Of a DNA stretch of 64,000 bases, positions 9,921-62,534 are shown in pieces (position 1 is the first letter of the stretch; every line of letters starts with the position of its first letter). Location: contig CM039000.1 in assembly GCA_017499595.2 (NCBI GenBank), positions 682,001-746,000 of the forward strand, written 5' to 3'. The notes beneath the pieces were generated by a model. The model saw nothing but the letters and a program-made list of their open reading frames with translations, was not told the DNA's origin and did no database searches. The position numbers and the translations under genes are program-made. This DNA comes from Psilocybe cubensis. Lineage: Eukaryota.

Positions 9921-10584
9921 TGACTTGAACTTGTTGAGCCGCGTTGAAAAAGAGTGTGGTTGGCCTTGAAGAAAGTTTGGCGTAAACCGAGCGGGATGGT
10001 ACAGGAAGGAGTCGTACAAGTCGTTGGAGTGAAAAGTTGACAGTCTAGTTTATAAGCTAATCAGGAAGTGAGCGGATGGATGATACCCTGCGTTCATCAT
10101 GGAAGAAGGGGAGGCAGACCACCTAAATTGATAGATTACTATTTATGATGTGCAGATGTTGCTTTTTCTGGCGAGTTTTTTCTCGGTAAAATGTCGAGAT
10201 CTATTAATAGGCCAAAAAAAGAGCGTAGTCCATGCATTCCAACACCTTCAATTTATCGTACAAGCAGAGGTTAGCCCCGCCCGAAGGCCAGAATGGGGCG
10301 TAACCGGTCTATCTACAGGGAAATCACTCACCGGCGAAAATCTGTCAAGGTCACGGGACAAACATCCTACCACAACGACGGGTCATACGTGTTCTTCCCG
10401 GGTTGACAATAGGCCCGCCTACGTCGTGTTAGAGGGTTCAAGGGCCCCGCGCGGGTCCACTTCAGAGGTGTCCAACAATAATCGCTAGAGCATACCCCTG
10501 CGTCAAAGCTCCCCGGACGCCATTATGTTGTGTCAGAGCATAGCGGGGTGACTCGAGGGTGCTGAACGGAAATTAGGGTGAGTC

Positions 10585-18644: not shown

Positions 18645-20443
18645 TCAGAGCGAGAACCACTGCCTCTTCGCGTAAAGCCTCCTGTGCGCGGTGGTTGCAG
18701 CTACTTTCACCTGTGGCTCGGGCTCGGGCGATTTCTTGACGAGCACGCCCTCCTCCGGGGAGGGAAGCAAAGCGCGTCTCCTGCGCCTGCTCGAGCGCTT
18801 CTGGCAAGACGGGGCGGGGTTGCCGTTGTCGTTGCTGCTGGACACAGAAGCAGCGGATGCAGAAGAAGCGGAGGCAGAGGCAGAGGCAGAGGAAGAAGCG
18901 CCTGCGGCGAGATTGGCGGGGGCGGGGCTTGCGCCGGTGTTTCCACCTGAGTTTGCGTTGTTCGAGCCTGAGCCGTTGTTTGAGTTGGATTTGTTCGAGC
19001 CCGAGTTGTTGTTGTTGGAGCCAGAATTGTTGGAACCGGAGTTGCCTGCGGGAGCACTCGGAGCGCCAGCAAAGATATCGTTCTGCGCGCCTGAAAAGAA
19101 GAATCGCAAAAAAACGCCAGGTCAGCCACTTACAATCCGAAATAAAAAAAAATAATCATTGAAACCAACCATCAGCGAAACCCAGCTTGGCATTGTATGC
19201 TGGAGACTTGAAGCTGCCTGAAAGGTCGTATCCACTGACAGCGATGTTGTTGCCCTCGTTCTGGTTCCAGTAAATCATCTGCTTCGAGCCCTTGACGCAG
19301 GCACCTGGGTTGCCCTCGCACCACACGGGTGGCTGTGGGGGTGCAATGGGCGTAGTGCTCTTTGCGCCGGTGACTTTGCACTTGAATGGCTGGTGGTACA
19401 TGTTCGGCTGGCCGCAGCCGTTCGGGACCCATCCCCACTGTGGAAAGAGTTAGACGAAAAATGTGAAGTTTGAATAGAAGTCGGCTTACAGCGCAGATGC
19501 AGCCTCCTTCAGGGCAGGCGGGCAAGTTGGCCGGGACATCGTAGCTGATAACGCGCTTCCAGGGTGTGCTGTGGGGGATTTTATTGATAAGCGTCATTGA
19601 TTTATTTGCAAGGAATGAAAACCACTCACTTATAACGAACAGTGAACACTGCAAGGTTCTGGGGAGTTACTGCCTTGATGTCAGACTAGAAAGTATTTGC
19701 AAAGTGAGCGCTAGATATGATTTTGAACGAGAGTTGGGGACTTGCGTTGTACGAGATTGCGAATGCGGTTCCGGCCGCCATAGACTGATTCTGGGCATGC
19801 ACTGCACAAAAATGAATCAGCAAAAACGCCAAGAAACGAGGGCCGCTCACTGTTTGGGGACGTGATGCATGAAGGGACATTCTGTGAGGCACAGTGGGTT
19901 AATTAATCAGTTGCTAGGAATATGGGAAAGACACGCACATAGTCCTCGGGGTATGTCGCACCGTCTGGCCATTCTGAGGTGTCGCGCCCGTTGTACGCCA
20001 GCGTGGTCTTTGCGCGGTTGGAGGCGATCTCGACGGTGAAGCTTCCACCAGCAGGACTGAAGTCGGGGTTTAGACGACGGAAATCAAAAATACAGGTGTG
20101 TTGGGACTCACAGCTCGAGGAAGTCCCCGTCTGCAGGAGGATATAGGTCACACTAGGTTAACAATTGCGTTGTTGATATGATGGACTGCAGAGTGTTGTT
20201 TAATGAGATGAACATAGCACAACGGCAAAACACGTACACCACCAATCCTTAAAGTTGAGCTGGACAATCGCGTAGGAATTCAAGTCTTGCGCAGCTTGCG
20301 GACCCTATAGAAAGAATGTAGATTCTTCAGCGGTTCTGAACATTTTGAAATGAGGACTACATTCCTTTGTGGAAAGCTGCAAGATGGGCGTTGGCGCCGC
20401 TTAGCCACAAGGCCGCTGTGAGAAGGGTTGCAGCTCGAAACAT
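18645..20443 (-). pseudogene. AA14 LPMO pseudogene, copy 2
   Basis: Same lesions as copy 1; premature TAG at 20357-20359. Confidence 0.88.
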
Positions 20444-33001: not shown

Positions 33002-34359
33002 TCAATCATGTTCCTTCGTCGGCAGAGAGATGTAGGTTGGCGCTGGTTCTTTGGAAACAATCGGAATCAAAATAAGAACGCTGCATAGAGAAACTACAAT
33101 CATTTGTAGAACGATGCCCACGCTGTCTACATGAATTCACAAAATCAATGATTCGACTAGAAAGGTGCAATACAGAAATCTTACCCAGTAGTATCCCTGA
33201 AATTTGGGTATGCAGGTTGGCTTGAGAATTCTTTGAGTCTGAGCCAAAAACCACTTACCGAAGGGAGGGTTTTCAACAAAGAGTCCTCGGATGGTCGGCA
33301 TCGTAAGTATCATGGTCAAAGGCAAGACCACAATTCCTTCTCCCAGTTTTTGTCCGCAAATGACCAGCGTTGTGATATGCGCCACCAGCAGCGTCAACCC
33401 CCAATTTACAATAAACAGTAAGATGGTATACATCTTCGCATTCAATGTCCTACTCAGGTTCACAACCGTGTTGCGCGACTCGATTAGTGTTCCGTTCACC
33501 AGCGCCTTTGTCCGCGTCTCCGTGGACTGAGGCGCAAAGTTATTGACTGGGTCGGCGAACACCGCTTTGATGACGGGTAAGGAAGAGTTGTCGTTGGCGT
33601 TGATGACGAAGAAATCAGAGCCGCTGTGGTAGAAGTCGAACGGATACCAGAAAAGCTGATCATACACGCGTTTGGAGCCTAGTTGTGCAGTTGCAATGTC
33701 GATGGAATGCGTCTTTAGGAAGTGTACAACGCTTCAGTAGCATACCAGGAACATTAGCACCGCACTGGAATGTAAGAGGATATAGAATTCTACCCAATTG
33801 TTTTGTTCGTGCTTTCGTTAAAATCATAAAGGTCGTCCGGATTGTATGTATTCACCAAGTTGCTAATATGGTGTAAGTACGACCTCGGGGGTAAAACTGT
33901 AGTCACATACTTGTCGATGTATATGTTCAGAGGGACATTTGGCGCTCCACATTGAGCTCTGTTTGCATCATACGTCTCCGCTGATGTAAGTAGGAAGCGC
34001 CCACAAGCACCGACAATCCACTGGACTTCGAAGGTTCGGCCAGGGATATCGATCTGATAAATATGCCCCAGAAAGAAGATCTAGATACAATGCGAATTGG
34101 ACGTCAGAAAAATAGTTATTTCCTGAATGCAACCAAGCAAAGATTATACCCCATCTTGCTTTCCGTTTAGAACGTCGCTCCGAAATGTTGCTGCCGCCGT
34201 GGTCTGTGTTGATATAGGCGCCAAGGTGAGTAGCGCAGAAAACCCAATCATAGTCAACAGCGAAGTAGAGACAAAAAGCAGCTCTTTCAGATGCCATCTC
34301 TTCGGTAACTTGTTCAGCAAATTGAATACACCGTCCACAATTGTGCTTTTCCTGTACAT
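33002..34359 (-). CDS. Multi-pass membrane protein, DUF4436-like (multi-exon)
   Basis: Spliced product has an N-terminal TM segment, a WYPFDFY motif, then TM helices with LTMPTIRGLFVENPPFGILLDSVG and a final TM ending PTKEHD*. YPFD and R-x-P-P-x-G motifs resemble DUF4436. Confidence 0.65.
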
Positions 34360-35204
34360 AATGTCCTTTATGAGATTGGAGGTGTATATTCGATTGACCA
34401 GCAGTGAACGCACAGCGGCTTCATGGGTAGTGGGAGCTCTGGACACGAGGGGGAGTGCAGGCGACAGGCTCAAGCTTACGGTCCTGGTTTTATCAGCTAC
34501 GGATGGTGATGCTGCCTTGCATCCGCCGATGACACTTCACAGCCGTCAAATTTACGTACTAGTGGCACTCATGATTGCCGAGATGAGATTAATACACCAA
34601 CATGTTTGAAAGAGATAATCTACACCCCTATAGGTATATAATGTCTGGCACTGTGGCAGCGATCGCTTTTGAATTGTAGTTGTAGATTTTCGATGGTGTC
34701 CCGAGTTTTGCTGTTTTGCACCAACTTGTCTCCTTCAGAGGTATGTGCTACTGATCACTTCTATAAAACACACCTGTCCCGAGTGATTACATATTAACTC
34801 CTACCATTGTGGGTAGGTCCAGTACAGGTGTCCAGAATTGTCAACCATTTCTGAGAAATTGTCATTGTGAAGCAAGACGGCTGCGGCCCGTTGGGCGTCA
34901 CGGAGATGAAGCTAATTTTAGACACCTTTCAATGACGCAAGGATGGTGGCTGCCACCAGTGGCTGGTAAACGGCGTCTTGTTGCCCAAGACCTTAGTTCA
35001 TGAAATCAATTGTTTCATGCTATTTCATCTGTAATACAAAATTTCTATTTCAGATAACGACTTCTACTACGTAGTACTAGTACTAGATATGTAGACACTA
35101 TTCATAGAACTTCCCGAGGATGATTGGCGCTCGTGTGAGCGCGATAAGTTCGTAATCGGCAAATGCAAAGAAACACGGTTGACGATGTGTCTGGTAATTA
35201 TAAT

Positions 35205-35870
35205 CACTGCGGGCGCCGACCGCTGTAAGTTAAACATACAGCAGAAAACTTACATGTCTTATGTAAGTTTCGCTGTAAGTTCAACATACAGCACACGTGT
35301 ATAAAAAACAAACACTCGACAAAGACATATTGTGTTTGGTGGCTGTATGCCGACCAAACACAATTGCTGTAAGTAGACTGTAAATAAAATAAACACCTAA
35401 ATTACACAAATTGTGTTTGTCCGGTGTTAGTAAAACATACACATTTTCTGTAAATGACACAAACAGCACTTGCTGTAAGTAAAATTTACATACAAAGAAC
35501 ACTATTTGTGTATGTCAGACTTACACCATTAAATGAATTGAAAAACTTGTGTAAGTATAACATACACAAATTGTTTTCTTTGTGTGTAATTTCTACTTAC
35601 AGTAAGTGCTGTTTGTATTACTTACAGAAAATGTGTATGTTTTACTAACACCGGACAAACACAATTTGTGTAATTTAGGTGTTTATTCTATTTACAGGCT
35701 ACTTACAGTAATTGTGTTTGGTTGGCATATAGCCACCAAACACAATATGTCTTTGTCAAATGTTTGTTTTCCTGACACATGCGCTGTAAGTTGAACATAC
35801 ACCTAAACTTACATAAGACATGTAAGTTTACTGCTGTATGTTTAACTTACAGCAGTCAGCGCCCGCAGTG
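35205..35870. mobile_element. 666-bp non-autonomous foldback/MITE with CACTG...CAGTG termini (CACTA/CMC-like), copy A
   Basis: Starts CACTGCGGGCGCCGACCGCTGTAAG and ends CTTACAGCAGTCAGCGCCCGCAGTG. ~300-bp inverted arms, many TGTAAG/CTTACA/ACATACA sub-repeats, AT-rich, no real ORF. Confidence 0.85.
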
Positions 35871-36536
35871 CACTGCAGGCGCCGACTGCTGTAAGTTAAA
35901 CATACAGCACTAAACTTACATGTCTTATGTAAGTTTAGGTGTATGTTCAACTTACAGCATATGTGTCGGGAAAACAAAAATTTAACAAAGACGTATTGTG
36001 TTTGGTGGCTGTATGCCGACCAAACACAATTGCTGTAAGTAGCCTGTAAATAGAATAAACACCTAAATTACACAAATTGTGTTTGTCCGGTGTTAGTAAA
36101 ACATACACATTTTCTGTAAATGACCAAAACAGCACTTACTGTAAGTAAAAATTACACACAAAGAAAACAATTTGTGTATATTATACTTACACAAGTTTTT
36201 CAATTCATTTAATGGTGTAAGTCTGACATACACAAATAGTGTTCTTTGTGTGTAAATTTTACTTACAGCAAGTGCTGTTTGTGTCATTTACAGAAAATGT
36301 GTATGTTTTACTAACACCGGACAAACACAATTTGTGTAATTTAGGTGTTTATTTTATTTACAGTCCACTAACAGCAATTGTGTTTGGTCAGCATGCAGCC
36401 ACCAAACACAATATGTCTTTGTCGAGTGTTTGTTTTTCATACACGTGTACTGTATGCTGAACTTACAGCGAAACTTACATAAGACATGTAAGTTTTCTGC
36501 TGTATGTTTAACTTACAGCGGTCGGCGCCCGCAGTG
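35871..36536. mobile_element. 666-bp CACTG-ended foldback/MITE, copy B, inverted relative to A
   Basis: Reverse complement of copy A with scattered substitutions; abuts A with no spacer (CAGTG|CACTG). Confidence 0.85.
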
Positions 36537-39009
36537 TTAATAGATATATGCAGAACAAGGAAGATGTTTTACATTTCTAAGAATAACCTGAAAGGTGAGT
36601 GGGTGTACATCCTCAAAGAGACATTCCCGTGAAATTCGAGCGATCAAGACCGTGTCCGGGAAGGTCTGCACCGCCTTGCAAAGGAAGCAAAACCAAGAAT
36701 ACAAAACATGAGAAGGCGTATTGGGCGCTTAAATTCCGTCGACATCTTCATATTCCTCCAGATGGCAGAGTAAGGGGCATGACTCATGCAAAAGTTGTTG
36801 ATACGTTTGCAACAAAATTTGAGGAATTTACCATTTTATTCGCTAAGAATGATTTTGAGTAGGACAACACTAATGGTACGGTGGTACCAAGAAACTTGCA
36901 TGCAACCTGAGCATGCAGCGGCGGACGCTGCCGTCGTGTGCATCGATGCCGAAAATGTTGTTGACGGCCGTCGGCGCGCGCCGTAACTTTGCTCTCCGAC
37001 GAGCTCCGACGCCTTGCATAGTAAATAAAGTACAACAAGTTCCGACCCTGCTCAGTCTCCAAAGGTGATACACTCATCAATATTTCAATGCTCATGGGCT
37101 TAGGACTCTCTGAGCAGCAGCAACCTTGAAAAACAACGAGTCGGTCAAATCTCACATCACTCTCTACGGGACTTACTATGCAGTGGACATATTTCTGACT
37201 CTCAAGCGTCGTAGTTTCATTCATGTCGATAAAGTAACCGATCTTCCGACGAGGCGCTCGATTCAAGTTGTTCTCGTGGCTCTCATAGTCAATTGAATAA
37301 CTGTCAATCTTGAAAGTGCGCTTCCTCAGGCCTTTCATGAAGTGTGTGTATGGCCATATTTTGTGACGGGATACTGTTGCGTTAGATGATTCACTTCAAA
37401 GTAGTTGCAGGACGGCCCTATGTGTATGCTCGCGGCTGGTCAGTTATAGCTAAACTATTCATCCAAGATCATGATTTGACTAATCAACATTGATTATAGG
37501 TCCCATATCTATAGATGTACATGCATTCTAGGTATCACAAAATCGGTTTTCTTTCTTTTTATGGGTTCGTGTTTGAGATTTATCGAGGTATGCCGTCTTG
37601 CTGGCTCAGCTGCGGAGACGACCCCCAATACTACTACCTGTCACCAAACAGCGGAGAAGATTCAGAAACAATAGACGGCTGTTTATACTAAGAACATTGC
37701 CTATGCAAAGCATCATCGTAATAGAAACAAGACCCACTCACCGTTCTCAATGCTACACAGGGTCATATACCCTCTGACATGTCCACGGCACCTTTATGTA
37801 CGTTTTTTACTCATTTCCGTGCCCATCTGCGCTGATAGAATCTCTGTCATGTCACTCCTCTGATTGCTTTCCCACCACTGACGAAACACGACTTGATTAC
37901 CCACATCTACTCAACGATGGCATACCTCCGAAAATGTTAGAAAATGCACACGGCTATCACTACAACAATGAATTTTGTGCATATATGGACCTAAGATACT
38001 CATGTCCGGCATCGATTCACACGGAAATCCTACGTGTTCGGAACCCTTCCAATCCTTTCAATCAAATTTTACGGATCGGCAGTAAAGGTCTTGATGATTC
38101 TGATTTTCGAGAACATCTGATATGGTGTTGAAAACACGACAGAACTTCGGGTGTGTTATCTTTGTTATCTTCATCCCTCCTTCCTCGAAACGGTGGCTAA
38201 CTTCTGTTGAAACTTGGGTAGGTATATTCAACGCACCCTGTACATGCACTGCGCCACGTCGACAGTGTGTCCAAAATTAGCAAAAGGCCCAAATAACTTC
38301 GGTGCCTTCGAACGATGATCATCTTGAACCAGCTATCAGGAAAACACTTCCACATGGCGAGGATGTGCGAGTGACAGATACTTTATTATCTTTCCAACAG
38401 CTGCTCATAGCGAGGGTGCTGTTTCATTTTCAGAGTTGATTGTAACGACGTTGGAGTAAGAGGCGATTTAACATTCCACGGAGTGGTACTTCCGTCAAAC
38501 TTCAACGGTACCCTGCGACCGCACATAGGGAATGCTGTCAACAAGCCAGCGATCATCATCATTGATGGCTTCATCTGTCCCACCAATCAGCTCTGGACCT
38601 CCTAAACCACGCCTGGCTGGCTGAAAGGCAAAGAATAGACTGATTGCAATTCGGAACGAGCTCGAACACCCGCAGAATCCGTGCGCGTCCTTCAAACATG
38701 ACAAGCATGGGAGGTTGGATGTCCGCCGTCCCGCGTTTTTTTCCTGCCTTCTCTACGGTTGTTCCTGGGGTCTCGAAGGGTGTTCTTTTCATCTCGTTGT
38801 TTGATCTGTGCCTGGTGCCAGGTTTTGGCGGGTGTATCGTGTAGGATCAATCAACATGAAGCTATTCGTGGCCGCATGCGTGGGCTGAGCTGTATGGGTG
38901 TATAAAGAGCCACCGTCGGCTCGATGGTTCTACGCGTTCGCCGAACGTGTCGTTCTTTCTTTCCCTTTGGTTTTTCATTTTGAGTCTTGGTGCCCCCCGA
39001 ACTGGCAAG

Positions 39010-48514: not shown

Positions 48515-48871
48515 AGAGGTACTACAAGTATTTATTGCAGGACTTGGTCCGAAAATCCTGCTCAATTCCTGTCTCTGTTATTTGTCCCTCAGGAAGGGTT
48601 TACGGACATGAACCAAAATGTTGAGGGTAAAGTGCAGTGTTGTAATTATACCACCGTTGAGTTACATACTAGAGATCAATCAGTCGTTATTAACAAGATT
48701 CAAGTCAACAGACTGCTAGGCTTTCGTTCTCTTCTTTTCTCAGTTTGTTCGGGCCACACCCGGAATTTACCGGTAGATACTGTTCCGTGTTACGTACACT
48801 GACAGAAGAGCTTGTACTTCAGCCGCATTAGCACCACCAACTATTATCAGTACCGCTCTCCTCTCGACCCA

Positions 48872-50392
48872 ATGCACGCATCAGCCTTGAGTCTCCCGAT
48901 AGAATTATTGTATTTTATTTTTGAACATCTCCAAAATCAAACACAGGAGGAGCCCAACGACCTACTCGCGGAAATTGTCGTATCACACGTCTGCTCTGCC
49001 TGGCGATCGATAGCGATAGGATATCCCAGGTTCTGGTCATGGTACGCATATCGCCACGAGAAAAGGCATAAACAGGAATTAGAGCGACTTGTCGTTTATC
49101 TCGAACGATCTTGCAACCATCCTCTGTATTTGTGGTTCGTACTCCGGTCATATCTCCCTGGCCCACGTATCCTCCACCCAAGGGCACACTCCGATACCAA
49201 AGAATCAAGAGCAATTTCTCTAATCCAGAAAGCCACAAAGCACGCTCGCAGATGGCGTTGTATCTCAATCGACATTCGAGGGGCGGAAGAATCCTATCAA
49301 AGATCGTCGAGTTTCTTCTCGCCTCTACAAAATCTATCTTTCCCAGAACTGGAGACCTTTGAGGTGTATGTGCCACGCTTATTGTACAGTGCTTACTTAG
49401 ACGACTTGTTTGGTGGTGAACTGGCGACTCCTAAGCTGTGGTTTGTTCGCATAGACCCCATCTCTTCTCTGCATTTCAATCCACCACACAGTATCACAAC
49501 ACTCGAGTTACATTGGGAGTACGGCGACCCATACCCATTAATGCCCGAATTCCTCGAAGTATTATTGGAAATCATGGCCTCTCCAATGTTGACGACCGTA
49601 TCCATAATTGGAGAAATGTTCGATGATGCATGCACTACCGGGTTTCTGTCAAAGAGGAAACGGTTTTCTACTTCTATCAAAAACCTTCGGTGCAGTAGCT
49701 CTATATTCTCGAGCGCTATATTTCGTCATTTTCAGTTCCCTCGGCTGGAAATGCTGTTCTTGCAGGAGATTGTCCTCAGGAGAATATTTAATTTCCGACC
49801 AATCGACCCGATTTTGAAGATCTTTCCTAGACTACGAACTCTTATTCTCCTCAACTGCTACAGCCTCACTCGAGAATGCATAATTTCTCTCGCCCAATAC
49901 ACGCAGAATGTGAAGCATCTATACATCCTTCAAGATCCGGCGCTATTAATAGGAGTGCATCTAGTTGACTATGAAGAAAGATCGGTGTTCTTCGCGATAG
50001 TCGACGAGAAGATCCTTTCCAATACAACTATATGGCCTGATCTTGACACCGTAATGTTCTCTACACCATTACCACATGTTATCTCCTCGGAACAAGTTGC
50101 ATCATGCATCGACATTGTCCAGATCCGGAAAAAACAATGTATGCTCCGCATCCCCAGGTATAACGCGAAGTACTGGGAATCAGAAGACCCTGTACTGTGG
50201 GCGTCATTTTCGGATACAGGAAAGCTCGAGATAATTCCTGTCGACGCCAACAAATCGATAGGCCGCTGGTTGCCTTGGCCTTCGCGAAAGCTTCAAGGGA
50301 TTAAACGTCTCGCTGACATCTACAATGGAGATCCATTCTTGCGTCCTATTGATTCTAGTCTTGAAGACTATGATAGCAGTGGCAATTCTTAG
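48872..50392 (+). CDS. F-box-like domain protein (agaricomycete F-box/LRR-like), intronless, paralog A
   Basis: LSLPIELLYFIFEH...VSHVCSAWRSIAIGYPRFWS, then YLERSCNHPL and RRWRCISI; LxxLxL repeats. First ATG is at 48872 (the ORF track starts at a TTG). Confidence 0.88.
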   Translation: MHASALSLPIELLYFIFEHLQNQTQEEPNDLLAEIVVSHVCSAWRSIAIGYPRFWSWYAYRHEKRHKQELERLVVYLERSCNHPLYLWFVLRSYLPGPRILHPRAHSDTKESRAISLIQKATKHARRWRCISIDIRGAEESYQRSSSFFSPLQNLSFPELETFEVYVPRLLYSAYLDDLFGGELATPKLWFVRIDPISSLHFNPPHSITTLELHWEYGDPYPLMPEFLEVLLEIMASPMLTTVSIIGEMFDDACTTGFLSKRKRFSTSIKNLRCSSSIFSSAIFRHFQFPRLEMLFLQEIVLRRIFNFRPIDPILKIFPRLRTLILLNCYSLTRECIISLAQYTQNVKHLYILQDPALLIGVHLVDYEERSVFFAIVDEKILSNTTIWPDLDTVMFSTPLPHVISSEQVASCIDIVQIRKKQCMLRIPRYNAKYWESEDPVLWASFSDTGKLEIIPVDANKSIGRWLPWPSRKLQGIKRLADIYNGDPFLRPIDSSLEDYDSSGNS

Positions 50393-51233: not shown

Positions 51234-52736
51234 ATGAACGCATCAATCCTGAATCTCCCGATAGAATTATTATCTTTGATTTTTGAACATCACCAAAATC
51301 AAACACAGGAAGAGCCCAACGACCTACTCGCGGAAATTGTTGTATCACACGTCTGCTCTGCCTGGCGATCGATAGCGATAGGACATCCCAAATTGTGGTC
51401 GTGGTACGCATATCGCCACGAGAAAAGGCATAAACAGGAATTAGAGCGACTTGTCGTTTATCTCGAACGATCTTGCAACCATCCTCTGTATTTGTGGTTC
51501 GTACTCCGGTCATATCTCCCTGGCCCACGTATCCTCCACCCTAGGACACACTCCGATTCCAAAGAATCAAGAGCAATTTCTCTATTACAGAAAGCCACAG
51601 AGCACGCTCGCAGATGGCGTTGTATCTCAATCGACATTCGAGGGGAGGAAGAATCCGATCAAAGCTTGTGGAGTTTCTTCTCGCCTCTACAAAATTTATC
51701 TTTCCCAGAACTGGAGACCTTTGAGGTGTACGTGCCACACTTATTGAGCAGTGCTTGCTCAGGTGACTTGTGTGGTGGTGAACTGGCGACTCCTAAGCTG
51801 TGGTTTGTTCGCATAGACCCCATCCCTTTTGCGCACTTCATTCCACCACACAGTATCACAACACTTGAGTTACATTGGGAGTACGGAGACCCATACCCAT
51901 TAATGCCCAATTTTTTCCAAGAATTATGGGATATCATGGCCTCTCCGATGTTGACGACCGTATCCATAATTGGAGAGATGTTGGATGATGAATACGCTAA
52001 GGAGTTCCGGACAAAGAAGAAACGGCTTTCCACCTCTATCAAAAACCTTCGGTGCAGTAGCTCTATATTCTCGAGCGCTATATTTCGTCATTTTCAGTTC
52101 CCTCAGCTGGAAGTGCTCTGGTTGCGGGAGATTGTCCTCCGGGAAATATTTGAGGATGTTCAACCAATCGACCCGACTTCGAAGATCTTTCCTAGTCTAC
52201 GAACTCTTATTCTGCTCAACTGCGAGAGCGCTCAGGATTCATACATAATTACTCTCGCCCAATACACGCAGAATGTGAGGCATCTATTCGTCATCCAAGA
52301 ACCGGATTTTTTAGAAGAGGATCCATTTGACCTTGGAGAACGATCGGTGTTCTTCGTGATAGTCGACGAGAAGATCCTTTCCAATACAACTATATGGCCT
52401 GATCTCGACACCATTACGTTCTCTAGACCAATAGACTATGATGTCTCATCGGAACAAGTTGCATCATGCATCGACATTGTCCAAAAGCGGAAAAAACAAT
52501 GTATGCTCCGCGTCCCCAGGTATAACGCGGAGCGCTGGGAATCAGAAGACCCTGTACTGTGGACGTCATTTTCGGATACAGGAAAGCTCGAGATAATTCC
52601 TGTCGATGCCAACAAGTCGATAGGACGCTGGTTGCCTTGGCCTTTGCGAGAGCCTCAAGGGATCAAACGTCCCGCTGACATCTACGATGGAGATCCATTC
52701 TTGCGTCCTATGGATTCTAGTCTTGAATACCTATGA
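51234..52736 (+). CDS. F-box-like domain protein, intronless, paralog B
   Basis: 500-aa ORF colinear with 48872-50392, with long identical blocks. Confidence 0.9.
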   Translation: MNASILNLPIELLSLIFEHHQNQTQEEPNDLLAEIVVSHVCSAWRSIAIGHPKLWSWYAYRHEKRHKQELERLVVYLERSCNHPLYLWFVLRSYLPGPRILHPRTHSDSKESRAISLLQKATEHARRWRCISIDIRGEEESDQSLWSFFSPLQNLSFPELETFEVYVPHLLSSACSGDLCGGELATPKLWFVRIDPIPFAHFIPPHSITTLELHWEYGDPYPLMPNFFQELWDIMASPMLTTVSIIGEMLDDEYAKEFRTKKKRLSTSIKNLRCSSSIFSSAIFRHFQFPQLEVLWLREIVLREIFEDVQPIDPTSKIFPSLRTLILLNCESAQDSYIITLAQYTQNVRHLFVIQEPDFLEEDPFDLGERSVFFVIVDEKILSNTTIWPDLDTITFSRPIDYDVSSEQVASCIDIVQKRKKQCMLRVPRYNAERWESEDPVLWTSFSDTGKLEIIPVDANKSIGRWLPWPLREPQGIKRPADIYDGDPFLRPMDSSLEYL

Positions 52737-60815: not shown

Positions 60816-62294
60816 CTAACTTTTGAAGATGCCACCGGTTGAGGCAGCATAGAAAGGATCTCTAGTCCCATGTCCCAAGCCTTCAGATTCCCCAACACCA
60901 CTTCGTGCAGGCCACGGTGGCAAAAACATCTGCAAATTTTGACCGGCGATAACCTCAAGCACACCCGAGTCTTCGAGCTCCCGCCACAATCCATCATCCA
61001 AAACTTTGTAGCGATCCACAATAAACGAAGGAAGGCGAACCGTGCCCCTTTCCCGTCCTTCCAAAGCATACCGGCGATAGATTCGGATATCATCTTCATC
61101 CTGCCAACTGTCGTAAGCTTGATTGACGAAGAAGGTAAGGTTTTTGCAGTAGTTGTCGCGACTATGCAGAAACCCTTCAAGTATGTGCAGCATAAGGTTG
61201 TAAAAACTACATTTGTAGTTCATCCGAAAAGCCCCTTTTAGAACATACAAATGGGAAATGTTGTTGGCGTGTTTGGCGATGGAATAGACGAAATGTTCAG
61301 ACTCGTTTAATCCACAATCAATAAATGCCAGAGTGCGCAATGCGGGGAAGATGCCGCCTAGGATACTGGGGGGAAATTTCCATGCGATGTGGGCGATGGT
61401 GAGGTCCTTGAGGGTCAACGACTCTAGCTGAGGATAGCGAATGCGGAAGAATAAGGTAGGTGCAGCGATGGTGTTGCTACAGCGCAGATGCTTCAAGTTG
61501 CTAACTTTTGCCTGGACATTTTCATAATATTCTGCAGGTGGCGACATTCTTGAAGGCACTCCACGGATAGAAAAGGAGATCAGAGTTGGAGACGCAATGA
61601 CTTCCCTCAACGCTAGTAAAATTGGGCTTCTATGTATGCTGCTGGATGTCCATTCTATTTCCAACGTCGTAATGTTCTGCGACAGTGTGAACGACAACAG
61701 CGTAATAGCGTCAATCCGGATAAAGTTCAATTTGGGGGCCATTCCAGCCAAAGCGCTAACGTATTCTGGAGAAGCAAACCTCTCGGAGGTAATCAACTCA
61801 AAGGTCTCCAAATTCGGCAGGGAGATTTGCTGCAAGAAAACCAAGGGGCTTTGGGGAGGATCTGGATATGTCTCCTCTGTTTCTCCATCGATGTGCACTA
61901 AAATTCGGCGCCATCGACCTGCATGCTCTGTAGCTTTCTGAACCAAAGAAAGTGCCCTAGATTCGACAGAAAGGCTACTGGTTGGACGTAAGACGGGTTT
62001 CTTAATCAGATCATACGGTTCCAGCCTGAATGATAGGTCCAAGAGTTGGTTGTGGGATCTTTCTAGGTAGTGAGCAAGCCGGTCAAGCTCCTTGATGAAA
62101 TTCTTCCCGTTCCAATACGTGTACTGTGACCAAAGCTTTGGACTTCCAATAGCCACTGCACGCCAGGACCGACAGACTTGAGATATAGCCACTTGCAGAG
62201 GCACGTCTTCTGAGGCGTGTGCCCCTGGAGCATGACAAGCCTCTTCAAATATAATTTGGAGTATTTCAGTAGGAGCATCCATTGCGGCGTGCAT
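60816..62294 (-). CDS. F-box-like domain protein, intronless, paralog C
   Basis: APTEILQIIFEE...ISQVCRSWRAVAIGSPKLWS...YLERSHNQLL...ESRALSLVQKATEHAGRWRR; same subfamily as 48872 and 51234. Confidence 0.88.
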   Translation of the reverse strand: MHAAMDAPTEILQIIFEEACHAPGAHASEDVPLQVAISQVCRSWRAVAIGSPKLWSQYTYWNGKNFIKELDRLAHYLERSHNQLLDLSFRLEPYDLIKKPVLRPTSSLSVESRALSLVQKATEHAGRWRRILVHIDGETEETYPDPPQSPLVFLQQISLPNLETFELITSERFASPEYVSALAGMAPKLNFIRIDAITLLSFTLSQNITTLEIEWTSSSIHRSPILLALREVIASPTLISFSIRGVPSRMSPPAEYYENVQAKVSNLKHLRCSNTIAAPTLFFRIRYPQLESLTLKDLTIAHIAWKFPPSILGGIFPALRTLAFIDCGLNESEHFVYSIAKHANNISHLYVLKGAFRMNYKCSFYNLMLHILEGFLHSRDNYCKNLTFFVNQAYDSWQDEDDIRIYRRYALEGRERGTVRLPSFIVDRYKVLDDGLWRELEDSGVLEVIAGQNLQMFLPPWPARSGVGESEGLGHGTRDPFYAASTGGIFKS

Positions 62295-62534
62295 AGTGCG
62301 ACTAGAGTGCGCGTCCTCCGTAATGCGATGTCGGTGAGTGTACAAGTTTGAAGAGAGTAAATTTTGAACCTTGTGCTTACGTGGCCCTTGTTCCCACTCT
62401 CGACAGTGAGAGCACTGATCATATTCCTGTGAATGTGAGCCAGTCAGAATCTTATATCGATGATTGCAGATTTAACTGGGGGGTACGGGGGTGGACTTGC
62501 ATTTACGGCTCGCCATGCGGTCCGTGTCATCAGG

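Follow-up and report, generated by a model that had tools for sequence, protein, structure and literature searches.

A spacer-less inverted dimer of a CACTG-ended foldback element is a presence/absence polymorphism in Psilocybe cubensis

Introduction

Long inverted arms composed of short motifs characterize the Drosophila FB elements, Galileo, and the hairpin-type MITEs, all of which are non-coding, occur in multiple copies, and are mobilized in trans. A hallmark of the CACTA elements is the presence of short subterminal repeats that occur in both orientations. The CMCT clade comprises EnSpm, Mirage, Chapaev, Transib, and Plavaka and has CA..TG termini and target-site duplications of 2–5 bp; for the Agaricomycotina, Plavaka termini of the types TGT..ACA and CATCA..TGATG are described (accessible part of PMC12730594). 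Transib elements carry the heptamer CACxxxG, followed after 12 or 23 bp by an A-rich nonamer with A at positions 5 and 6, and they insert into GC-rich targets. RAG-mediated events also occur with a 4-bp duplication, and as of 2005 soybean rust was the only fungus with Transib according to the accessible part of the same source (PMC1131882). V(D)J signal ends and excised Hermes and hobo elements can be joined precisely end to end, and such products can be cut and can reintegrate (PMC2803484, excerpt).

Here we describe a locus of the mushroom Psilocybe cubensis at which two foldback elements with CACTG termini are joined end to end. It lies in a stretch of 64,000 nucleotides, referred to as the window (GenBank assembly GCA_017499595.2, contig CM039000.1, positions 682,001 to 746,000), and all coordinates below are positions within this window.

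Sequence data

Thirteen sequencing runs from five studies cover part of the stretch, and four of them were used. Raw Illumina reads of X14 and X15, together with contigs from X1 and X6, were mapped to positions 34705–37036 at a likeness of ≥80%.

Architecture of the palindrome

A first-pass annotation of the window had described positions 35205–36536 as a spacer-less nested palindrome, and this description was borne out. Two foldbacks of 666 bp each, hereafter called A and B, lie in opposite orientation with 0 nt between them. The overall inverted repeat (I1) has arms at 35199–35870 and 35871–36542, which are 96% complementary at 0 nt spacing. Nested in these arms are the two foldbacks I2 (35205–35526 and 35549–35870; 322-nt arms, 90%, 22-nt loop) and I3 (35871–36192 and 36215–36536; 89%). 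In an ungapped comparison A was 95.9% identical to the reverse complement of B, with 27 differences in 666 positions and no indels, whereas the identity of A and B in direct reading was just 88.3%, which makes B a copy of A in inverted orientation. A 16-nt terminal sequence, CACTGCGGGCGCCGAC, was found with 0–1 mismatch at exactly four places in the 64-kb window, and these are the four predicted ends; the shuffled control yielded a mean of 0.33 matches at ≤3 mismatches. The insertion consists of the following parts.

35201–35204, no strand: left TAAT of the target-site duplication; the empty-site joint 35200→36538 has 4 letters fitting either side (X14, X15, X6).
35205–35870, + strand: monomer A, a 666-bp foldback with the termini CACTG...CAGTG; reads of other copies break at 35205 (204–221 reads) and 35870 (641–677 reads).
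35205–35526, + strand: outer (L-type) arm of A, 322 nt, with 97.5% identity to the outer arm of B and 90.4% to the inner arms.
35527–35548, + strand: loop of A, 22 nt, identical at 22 of 22 positions to the reverse complement of the B loop.
35549–35870, − strand: inner (R-type) arm of A, with 94.1% identity to the inner arm of B.
35866–35875, no strand: tail-to-tail junction CAGTG/CACTG without spacer, joint at 35870/35871; its exact centre is taken from the assembly alone.
35871–36536, − strand: monomer B, the inverted element, with 27 substitutions relative to A (I3 and the comparison of A and B).
36193–36214, − strand: loop of B, 22 nt (I3).
36537, no strand: one extra T, or part of a 5-bp duplication whose first base is mismatched (skipped length 1337 = 1332 + 1 + 4).
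36538–36541, no strand: right copy of the target-site duplication, TAAT (empty-site joint).

Both termini at the inner junction are complete, because other copies of the element end at 35870 and begin at 35871. The locus thus contains a precise fusion of two complete transposon ends (CAGTG/CACTG) of the kind found in signal joints. The signal-joint geometry pointed out earlier for this fusion holds in this sense, and the likeness is a geometric one.

The insertion in other strains

An empty site was present in three of the four runs (X14, X15, and X6). The joint 35200→36538 skips 1337 bases, has 4 shared letters, and was represented by 19 reads in X14, 21 reads in X15, and one contig of 3152 bp in X6. 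As these read counts approximate the full depth of the flanks, X14 and X15 appear to be mostly or wholly empty at this site. The site is filled in X1, which may be identical with the assembly's own sample: contigs from each flank extend into the element for 26–28 nt and show 0 differences. The polymorphism is one of presence or absence of the complete 1.33-kb dimer, both halves being missing together, and it can be used as a presence/absence marker between strains. At the flank sites 34722, 36605, 36649, 36771, 36842, and others, X14 and X15 showed intermediate allele fractions, which are consistent with dikaryotic or heterozygous material.

The empty allele reads ...TTA-TAAT-AGA... and the filled allele TAAT/CACTG...CAGTG/T/TAAT. 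The outer flanks are ATAAT and TTAAT, as had been noted from the assembly; the empty allele refines this observation to a duplication of 4 bp plus an extra T, or to an imperfect duplication of 5 bp, a length that was read at one locus. A single duplication flanks the pair. No target-site duplication exists at the inner junction, where 0 nt separate the complete termini. Duplication of the target site and the existence of individuals with an empty site are features that the insertion shares with non-autonomous DNA transposons of the foldback/MITE type.

A loop-less palindrome of 1.3 kb is likely to be a fragile and hairpin-prone site and an assembly hazard. We nevertheless consider it very unlikely that the centre is an assembly error and that the real insertion consists of one monomer or of two monomers with intervening DNA. 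It is true that palindromes are difficult to assemble and that none of the listed reads or contigs from the insertion-bearing strain bridges 35870/35871; the X1 contigs stop 26–28 nt inside each outer end. However, 27 substitutions without any indel between the halves do not resemble the pattern of consensus errors, and the empty allele shows that both flanks belong to one locus. A weak indication from one site points in the same direction: at both outer ends the X1 contigs have C at arm position 17, the base of the L type, as is expected for an inverted dimer and not for a plain L...R monomer, although X1 may be the sample of the assembly itself.

A multi-copy family with conserved termini

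Sequencing depth in X14 and X15 was ~25–30 in the flanks and rose up to ~1000 in the element. The integrated depth corresponded to ~36–44 monomer equivalents in X14 and ~37 in X15. With roughly 35–45 copies, the 666-bp monomer is mobile and repetitive and represents the usual unit of transposition in the family. Reads broke at the monomer ends (X14 and X15, respectively) at 35205 (204 and 221 reads), 35870 (641 and 677), and 35871 (403 and 424), and 205 reads of X15 broke at 35204. The consensus agreement of the loose read parts past these ends was only 0.34–0.42, and the contigs of X1 and X6 behaved alike; agreement as low as this is expected where the flanks are many and different. The first-pass annotation had named poorly conserved ends among other copies as the observation that would speak against it. 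In the other copies the ends lie precisely at 35205, 35870, and 35871, and its reading was not refuted. Conserved terminal inverted repeats are common to many copies, as in non-autonomous foldback elements and MITEs.

In each run, ~250 reads kept the first 87 nt of the element (up to 35291) and then switched to another, well-agreed sequence (agreement 0.96–0.98). Another group of reads departed from the element after 38 nt (35908) into a different, well-agreed sequence. Counted over both kinds of departure, the numbers were ~250–320 reads per run. These two groups represent subfamilies and possibly the longer autonomous relative. In X14, moreover, 8–9 reads joined the terminus 35205 to 35788 or 36132 on the opposite strand, which suggests that the family inserts into itself elsewhere in the X14 genome.

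Of the X14 reads, 3539 of 6680 were 95–99% like the window. Since most reads from strains that lack this locus fall into this range, a difference of 4% is ordinary between copies of the family. The window itself contained no further copies of the element, and outside 35150–36600 there were just chance matches of 12–31 nt; a related longer element was also absent from the 64-kb window. A metagenome scan with the terminal pattern gave 0 matches. A 21-mer motif matched nine metagenomic loci, but at these the motif alone was matched (locus L006, for example, is a mere 21-bp hairpin), and the matches were dismissed as chance. In the literature covered, which excludes most subscription journals, no basidiomycete foldback family with CACTG ends is described. 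Within the likewise incomplete coverage for P. cubensis, there was no transposon survey that includes this family. The CACTG-ended foldback family of P. cubensis is recently active and, within this literature, undescribed.

Arm types, internal motifs, and folding

The four arms were aligned from tip to loop and compared site by site. At 19 sites the two outer arms agreed with each other against both inner arms, and 0 sites showed any other two-two pattern. Both halves therefore descend from a monomer that was asymmetric before they separated and consisted of an L arm, a loop, and an R arm, and the layout of the dimer is L-R/R-L, tail to tail. The outer arms had 2 and 6 private changes and the inner arms 9 each; the excess in the inner (18) over the outer arms (8) was not significant (two-sided binomial, 0.076).

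Each arm is built from smaller palindromes, of which two are listed here.

35224–35240, no strand: example of the 17-bp mini-palindromic unit, TGTAAGT-N3-ACATACA, with ~8 copies per arm (25-mer family D1, 17 copies).
35329–35364, no strand: internal palindrome of 36 nt, ATTGTGTTTGG...CCAAACACAAT, one per arm (D3/I4).

The general form of the 17-bp unit is TGTAWGT-N3-ACWTACA, which occurs in about eight copies per arm. Its 7-mers reach 15–17 per kb in the element compared to 0.08–0.26 per kb across the other 62.7 kb of the window. By analogy with cut-and-paste transposons in general, the unit is presumably a transposase-binding subterminal repeat. A palindrome of ~70 nt adjoins each tip (arms 35222–35242 and 35272–35292). 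A single arm folded far better than its shuffles (z = −6.98), and for the 1332 nt as single-stranded DNA one continuous hairpin of −736.6 kcal/mol is predicted. If the locus is transcribed, double-stranded RNA is a likely product.

No transposase gene was found within 35205–36536, where the longest stop-to-stop frames have 77–79 aa and the sequence consists almost wholly of repeat arms. The 1.33 kb also contain look-alikes of fungal splice signals on both strands (GTAAGT 15 times, GTATGT six times, and TTACAG 11 times), and each monomer has one branch-point-like word ACTAAC. These words may be a coincidence of the repeated binding motif; they would allow a copy inserted in a gene to be spliced in either orientation.

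Divergence of the two halves

In the flanks, the empty allele (X6 contig) and the filled allele (window) differed at 3 of ~995 bases. A duplication in place must postdate the split of the filled and empty haplotypes, and the flank divergence therefore predicts ~2 or fewer differences between A and B. The 27 differences seen far exceeded this expectation (Poisson P = 2e-21). With the expected rate set to the upper confidence bound of the flank divergence, P was 2e-10 for all 27 differences and 0.017 when only the 12 polarised private substitutions other than C>T or G>A were counted, these values presuming like mutation rates in element and flank. The repeat mutates somewhat faster than its flanks. 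The ratio of observed to expected CpG was 0.66 in the element versus 0.97 in the flanks, and 14 of the 26 polarised private changes were C>T or G>A (5 at CpG, 8 at CpA/TpG), with transitions accounting for 21 of 26. The several CG>CA/TG differences mentioned in the first-pass annotation are thus real, as 5 of the 26 polarisable private substitutions lie at CpG.

In this light, it is highly improbable that a single monomer was duplicated in place and inverted, by template switching or hairpin repair, and subsequently altered by repeat-directed hypermutation. A spacer-less junction exactly at the transposase cleavage site would fit such a process, as would the transition bias (21/26) and the CpG depletion of the element, but the 27 differences stand against ≤2 expected, and changes other than C>T or G>A make up 12 of the 26 that were polarised. 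Had one cleaved end simply been repaired by hairpin priming, the flank would presumably also have been copied. The old inverted duplication in place that had been offered as one origin is accordingly disfavoured by the contrast of 27/666 with 3/~995.

The same contrast implies that the halves were already different on arrival. At the A-private sites 35303, 35491, 35593, and 35782 and the B-private sites 35910, 35993, and 36180, between 84 and 95% of the reads from other copies had the other state, and each half thus carries derived mutations of its own like any two members of the family. Since the difference of ~4% predates arrival, A and B represent separate members of the family; neither was copied locally from the other.

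The halves might also have diverged within an older, self-propagating dimer lineage, which arose from one monomer, for example by replication of a hairpin-closed excised element, and accumulated the 4% since then. Palindromes at every scale (17 bp, 36 nt, ~70 nt, 666 bp, and 1332 bp) hint at repeated inverted duplication, the folding of the arms (z = −6.98) is in line with it, and the two loops are still identical. Against such a lineage, 641 of the ~963 reads over 35858 in X14, a run without this locus, were clipped exactly at 35870. Given that the remaining reads may be extended by one to three bases by chance, there is, by a rough estimate, little space for numerous dimer junctions. The private changes of A and B are, as in ordinary copies, absent from most reads of the family, and we know of no hairpin-ended intermediates in the CMCT clade. 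We regard an older dimer lineage as distinctly unlikely.

Genomic setting

The dimer lies in a gene-poor gap with a GC content of ~41%. Among 20 frames between 31.2 and 41.3 kb, Pfam searches yielded a weak DUF4436 match at 33137–33733 (−), WSC matches at 39.5–40.4 kb (+), and nothing else. For the nearest ORF (36784–37338, −) no homologue was found. A neighbouring Rds1 gene matches a protein of Psilocybe cubensis with 100% identity, in keeping with this species as the host. Rfam and tRNA scans of the 64-kb window gave no matches.

Positions 1 to ~31660 of the window consist of three head-to-tail copies of a 10.5-kb unit, which are spaced by 10513–10536 and mostly share 96–100% identity; each copy includes 140-bp tandem subrepeats. 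Ribosomal DNA was considered for this repeat and rejected, given that there were no Rfam matches and no ITS1/ITS4 primer sites. The sole Pfam match among 25 frames of the repeat region was a short LPMO_AA14 fragment at 19172–19666 (−). Farther downstream, at 48812–50392 (+), 51234–52736 (+), and 60816–62345 (−), lie three ORFs of ~500 aa that are paralogues of one another and show a weak F-box-like stretch at the N-terminus. The first two form a tandem pair, with 93% identity over 300 nt and a spacing of 2362.

Origin of the dimer

The locus is probably (at roughly 0.6) a recent, strain-specific insertion of an inverted tip-to-tip dimer, in which two non-coding foldback copies were precisely fused at their ends and moved as a unit. 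The first-pass annotation had offered three origins, and it is the end-joined dimer moving as a unit that is favoured by the joint absence of both halves in other strains, the single outer duplication, the lack of one inside, and halves that are more diverged than the flanks. Its two other proposals fared less well. Besides the old inverted duplication discussed above, insertion exactly at another copy's terminus is unsupported, as a duplication specific to one half is present at neither of them. On the same ground, we rejected the possibility of a nested or adjacent insertion.

In the simplest course of events, two elements were cut and the end-joining machinery of the host ligated their right-hand ends precisely, with no base gained or lost. 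The fused product would then have acted as an enlarged foldback whose outer ends are both of the L type. A trans-acting transposase would have cut at these outer ends and pasted the unit into the AT-rich TAAT, giving rise to the 4–5-bp duplication. We infer the end-joining origin from the geometry of the junction only.

An alternative is a double insertion, in which opposite monomers successively entered one TAAT and their inner ends were afterwards cut and joined precisely, with loss of the middle duplication. It accounts for halves that had diverged beforehand, for the one duplication around the pair, and for the empty allele, and the X14 joints from 35205 to 35788 and 36132 suggest that the family lands in or beside itself. 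Double insertions are also documented in bursts of activity, including head-to-head pairs of P elements, but in the documented cases, as far as the accessible text goes, the duplication is retained in the junction, where it is absent here (PMC5932611). In addition, three events would have to have occurred at one site within the short time set by the flank divergence of 0.3%, and an allele with a single monomer was not seen among the joints listed. We consider a double insertion unlikely, and with its cleavage of the inner ends it would use the same joining chemistry as the preferred account. Movement as a unit and two insertions at one site with loss of the spacer are not separated by the data.

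Under the preferred account of an end-joined dimer, the locus is unusual but can be explained as a by-product of normal cut-and-paste transposition, and it is a clean natural example of two transposon ends that were fused without an added base and then carried to a new site. If the end-joining origin is true, the junction provides indirect evidence on the cleavage chemistry of a fungal CAC-ended transposon and a concrete route by which foldback elements can be enlarged. A bolder and rather unlikely proposal is that the dimer is a natural chromosomal signal joint from a fungal relative of CACTA, Transib, and RAG, whose blunt ends were ligated by the host to a transposition-competent product, and that repeated fusions of this type built the palindromes of 17, 36, ~70, 666, and 1332 bp. 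If that were true, the dimer would be a snapshot of the birth and growth of a foldback transposon. There is no evidence for a host function of the dimer, and it does not indicate a new kind of system.

Comparison with known systems

The element is a non-autonomous foldback DNA transposon of a new family that probably belongs to the CMCT clade. The attribution to CACTA and Transib made in the first-pass annotation is upheld by the CAC...GTG termini; it is not upheld by the 3-bp duplication of CACTA, the Transib nonamer, or a GC-rich target, and what remains is a resemblance. Like CACTA elements, the arms carry short subterminal repeats in both orientations. The CAC...GTG termini are shared with CACTA/EnSpm and the duplication falls inside the 2–5 bp of the clade, whereas the EnSpm duplication is 3 bp and that of the element, at one locus, 4 (+1) or an imperfect 5 bp (accessible part of PMC12730594). 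Plavaka differs from the element with its CACTG..CAGTG termini by having TGT..ACA or CATCA..TGATG ends and 2–3-bp duplications (same source, PMC12730594). The hAT elements, as characterized in the available sections of PMC1131882 and PMC12730594, differ by G as the third terminal nucleotide, where the element has C, and by a duplication of 8 bp (rarely 5–7 bp).

With Transib and RAG the element shares the CAC tip and a heptamer-to-heptamer fusion with signal-joint geometry, and its duplication may be 5 bp long. ATAAT and TTAAT match at 4 of the 5 bases of a Transib-type duplication, and the empty site supports 4 duplicated bases only. The 9-mers in the place of a Transib nonamer, TGTAAGTTA at a spacing of 12 bp and CATACAGCA at one of 23 bp, do not have AA at positions 5–6. 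The target at this one locus also differs from that of Transib, as it is TAAT in a region of ~41% GC and not GC-rich.

Hermes and hobo episomes and V(D)J signal joints resemble the dimer in the precise joining of two cut ends; in these, however, the two ends of one element are joined into a circle, whereas here like ends of two copies are joined in a chromosome (PMC2803484, excerpt). The double-insertion dimers of P elements, hobo, and R1 are similar in that paired copies occupy one target in the course of recent activity, but their junction retains the target duplication, and none is present here (accessible text of PMC5932611).

The overall organization resembles that of FB, Galileo, and the hairpin MITEs, since the element consists of nearly nothing but inverted arms built from short motifs, is non-coding and multi-copy, and would be mobilized in trans. 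It differs from these in being a new family of an agaric mushroom with CACTG termini and a 4–5-bp duplication, to which the dimer adds a further, loop-less palindromic level.
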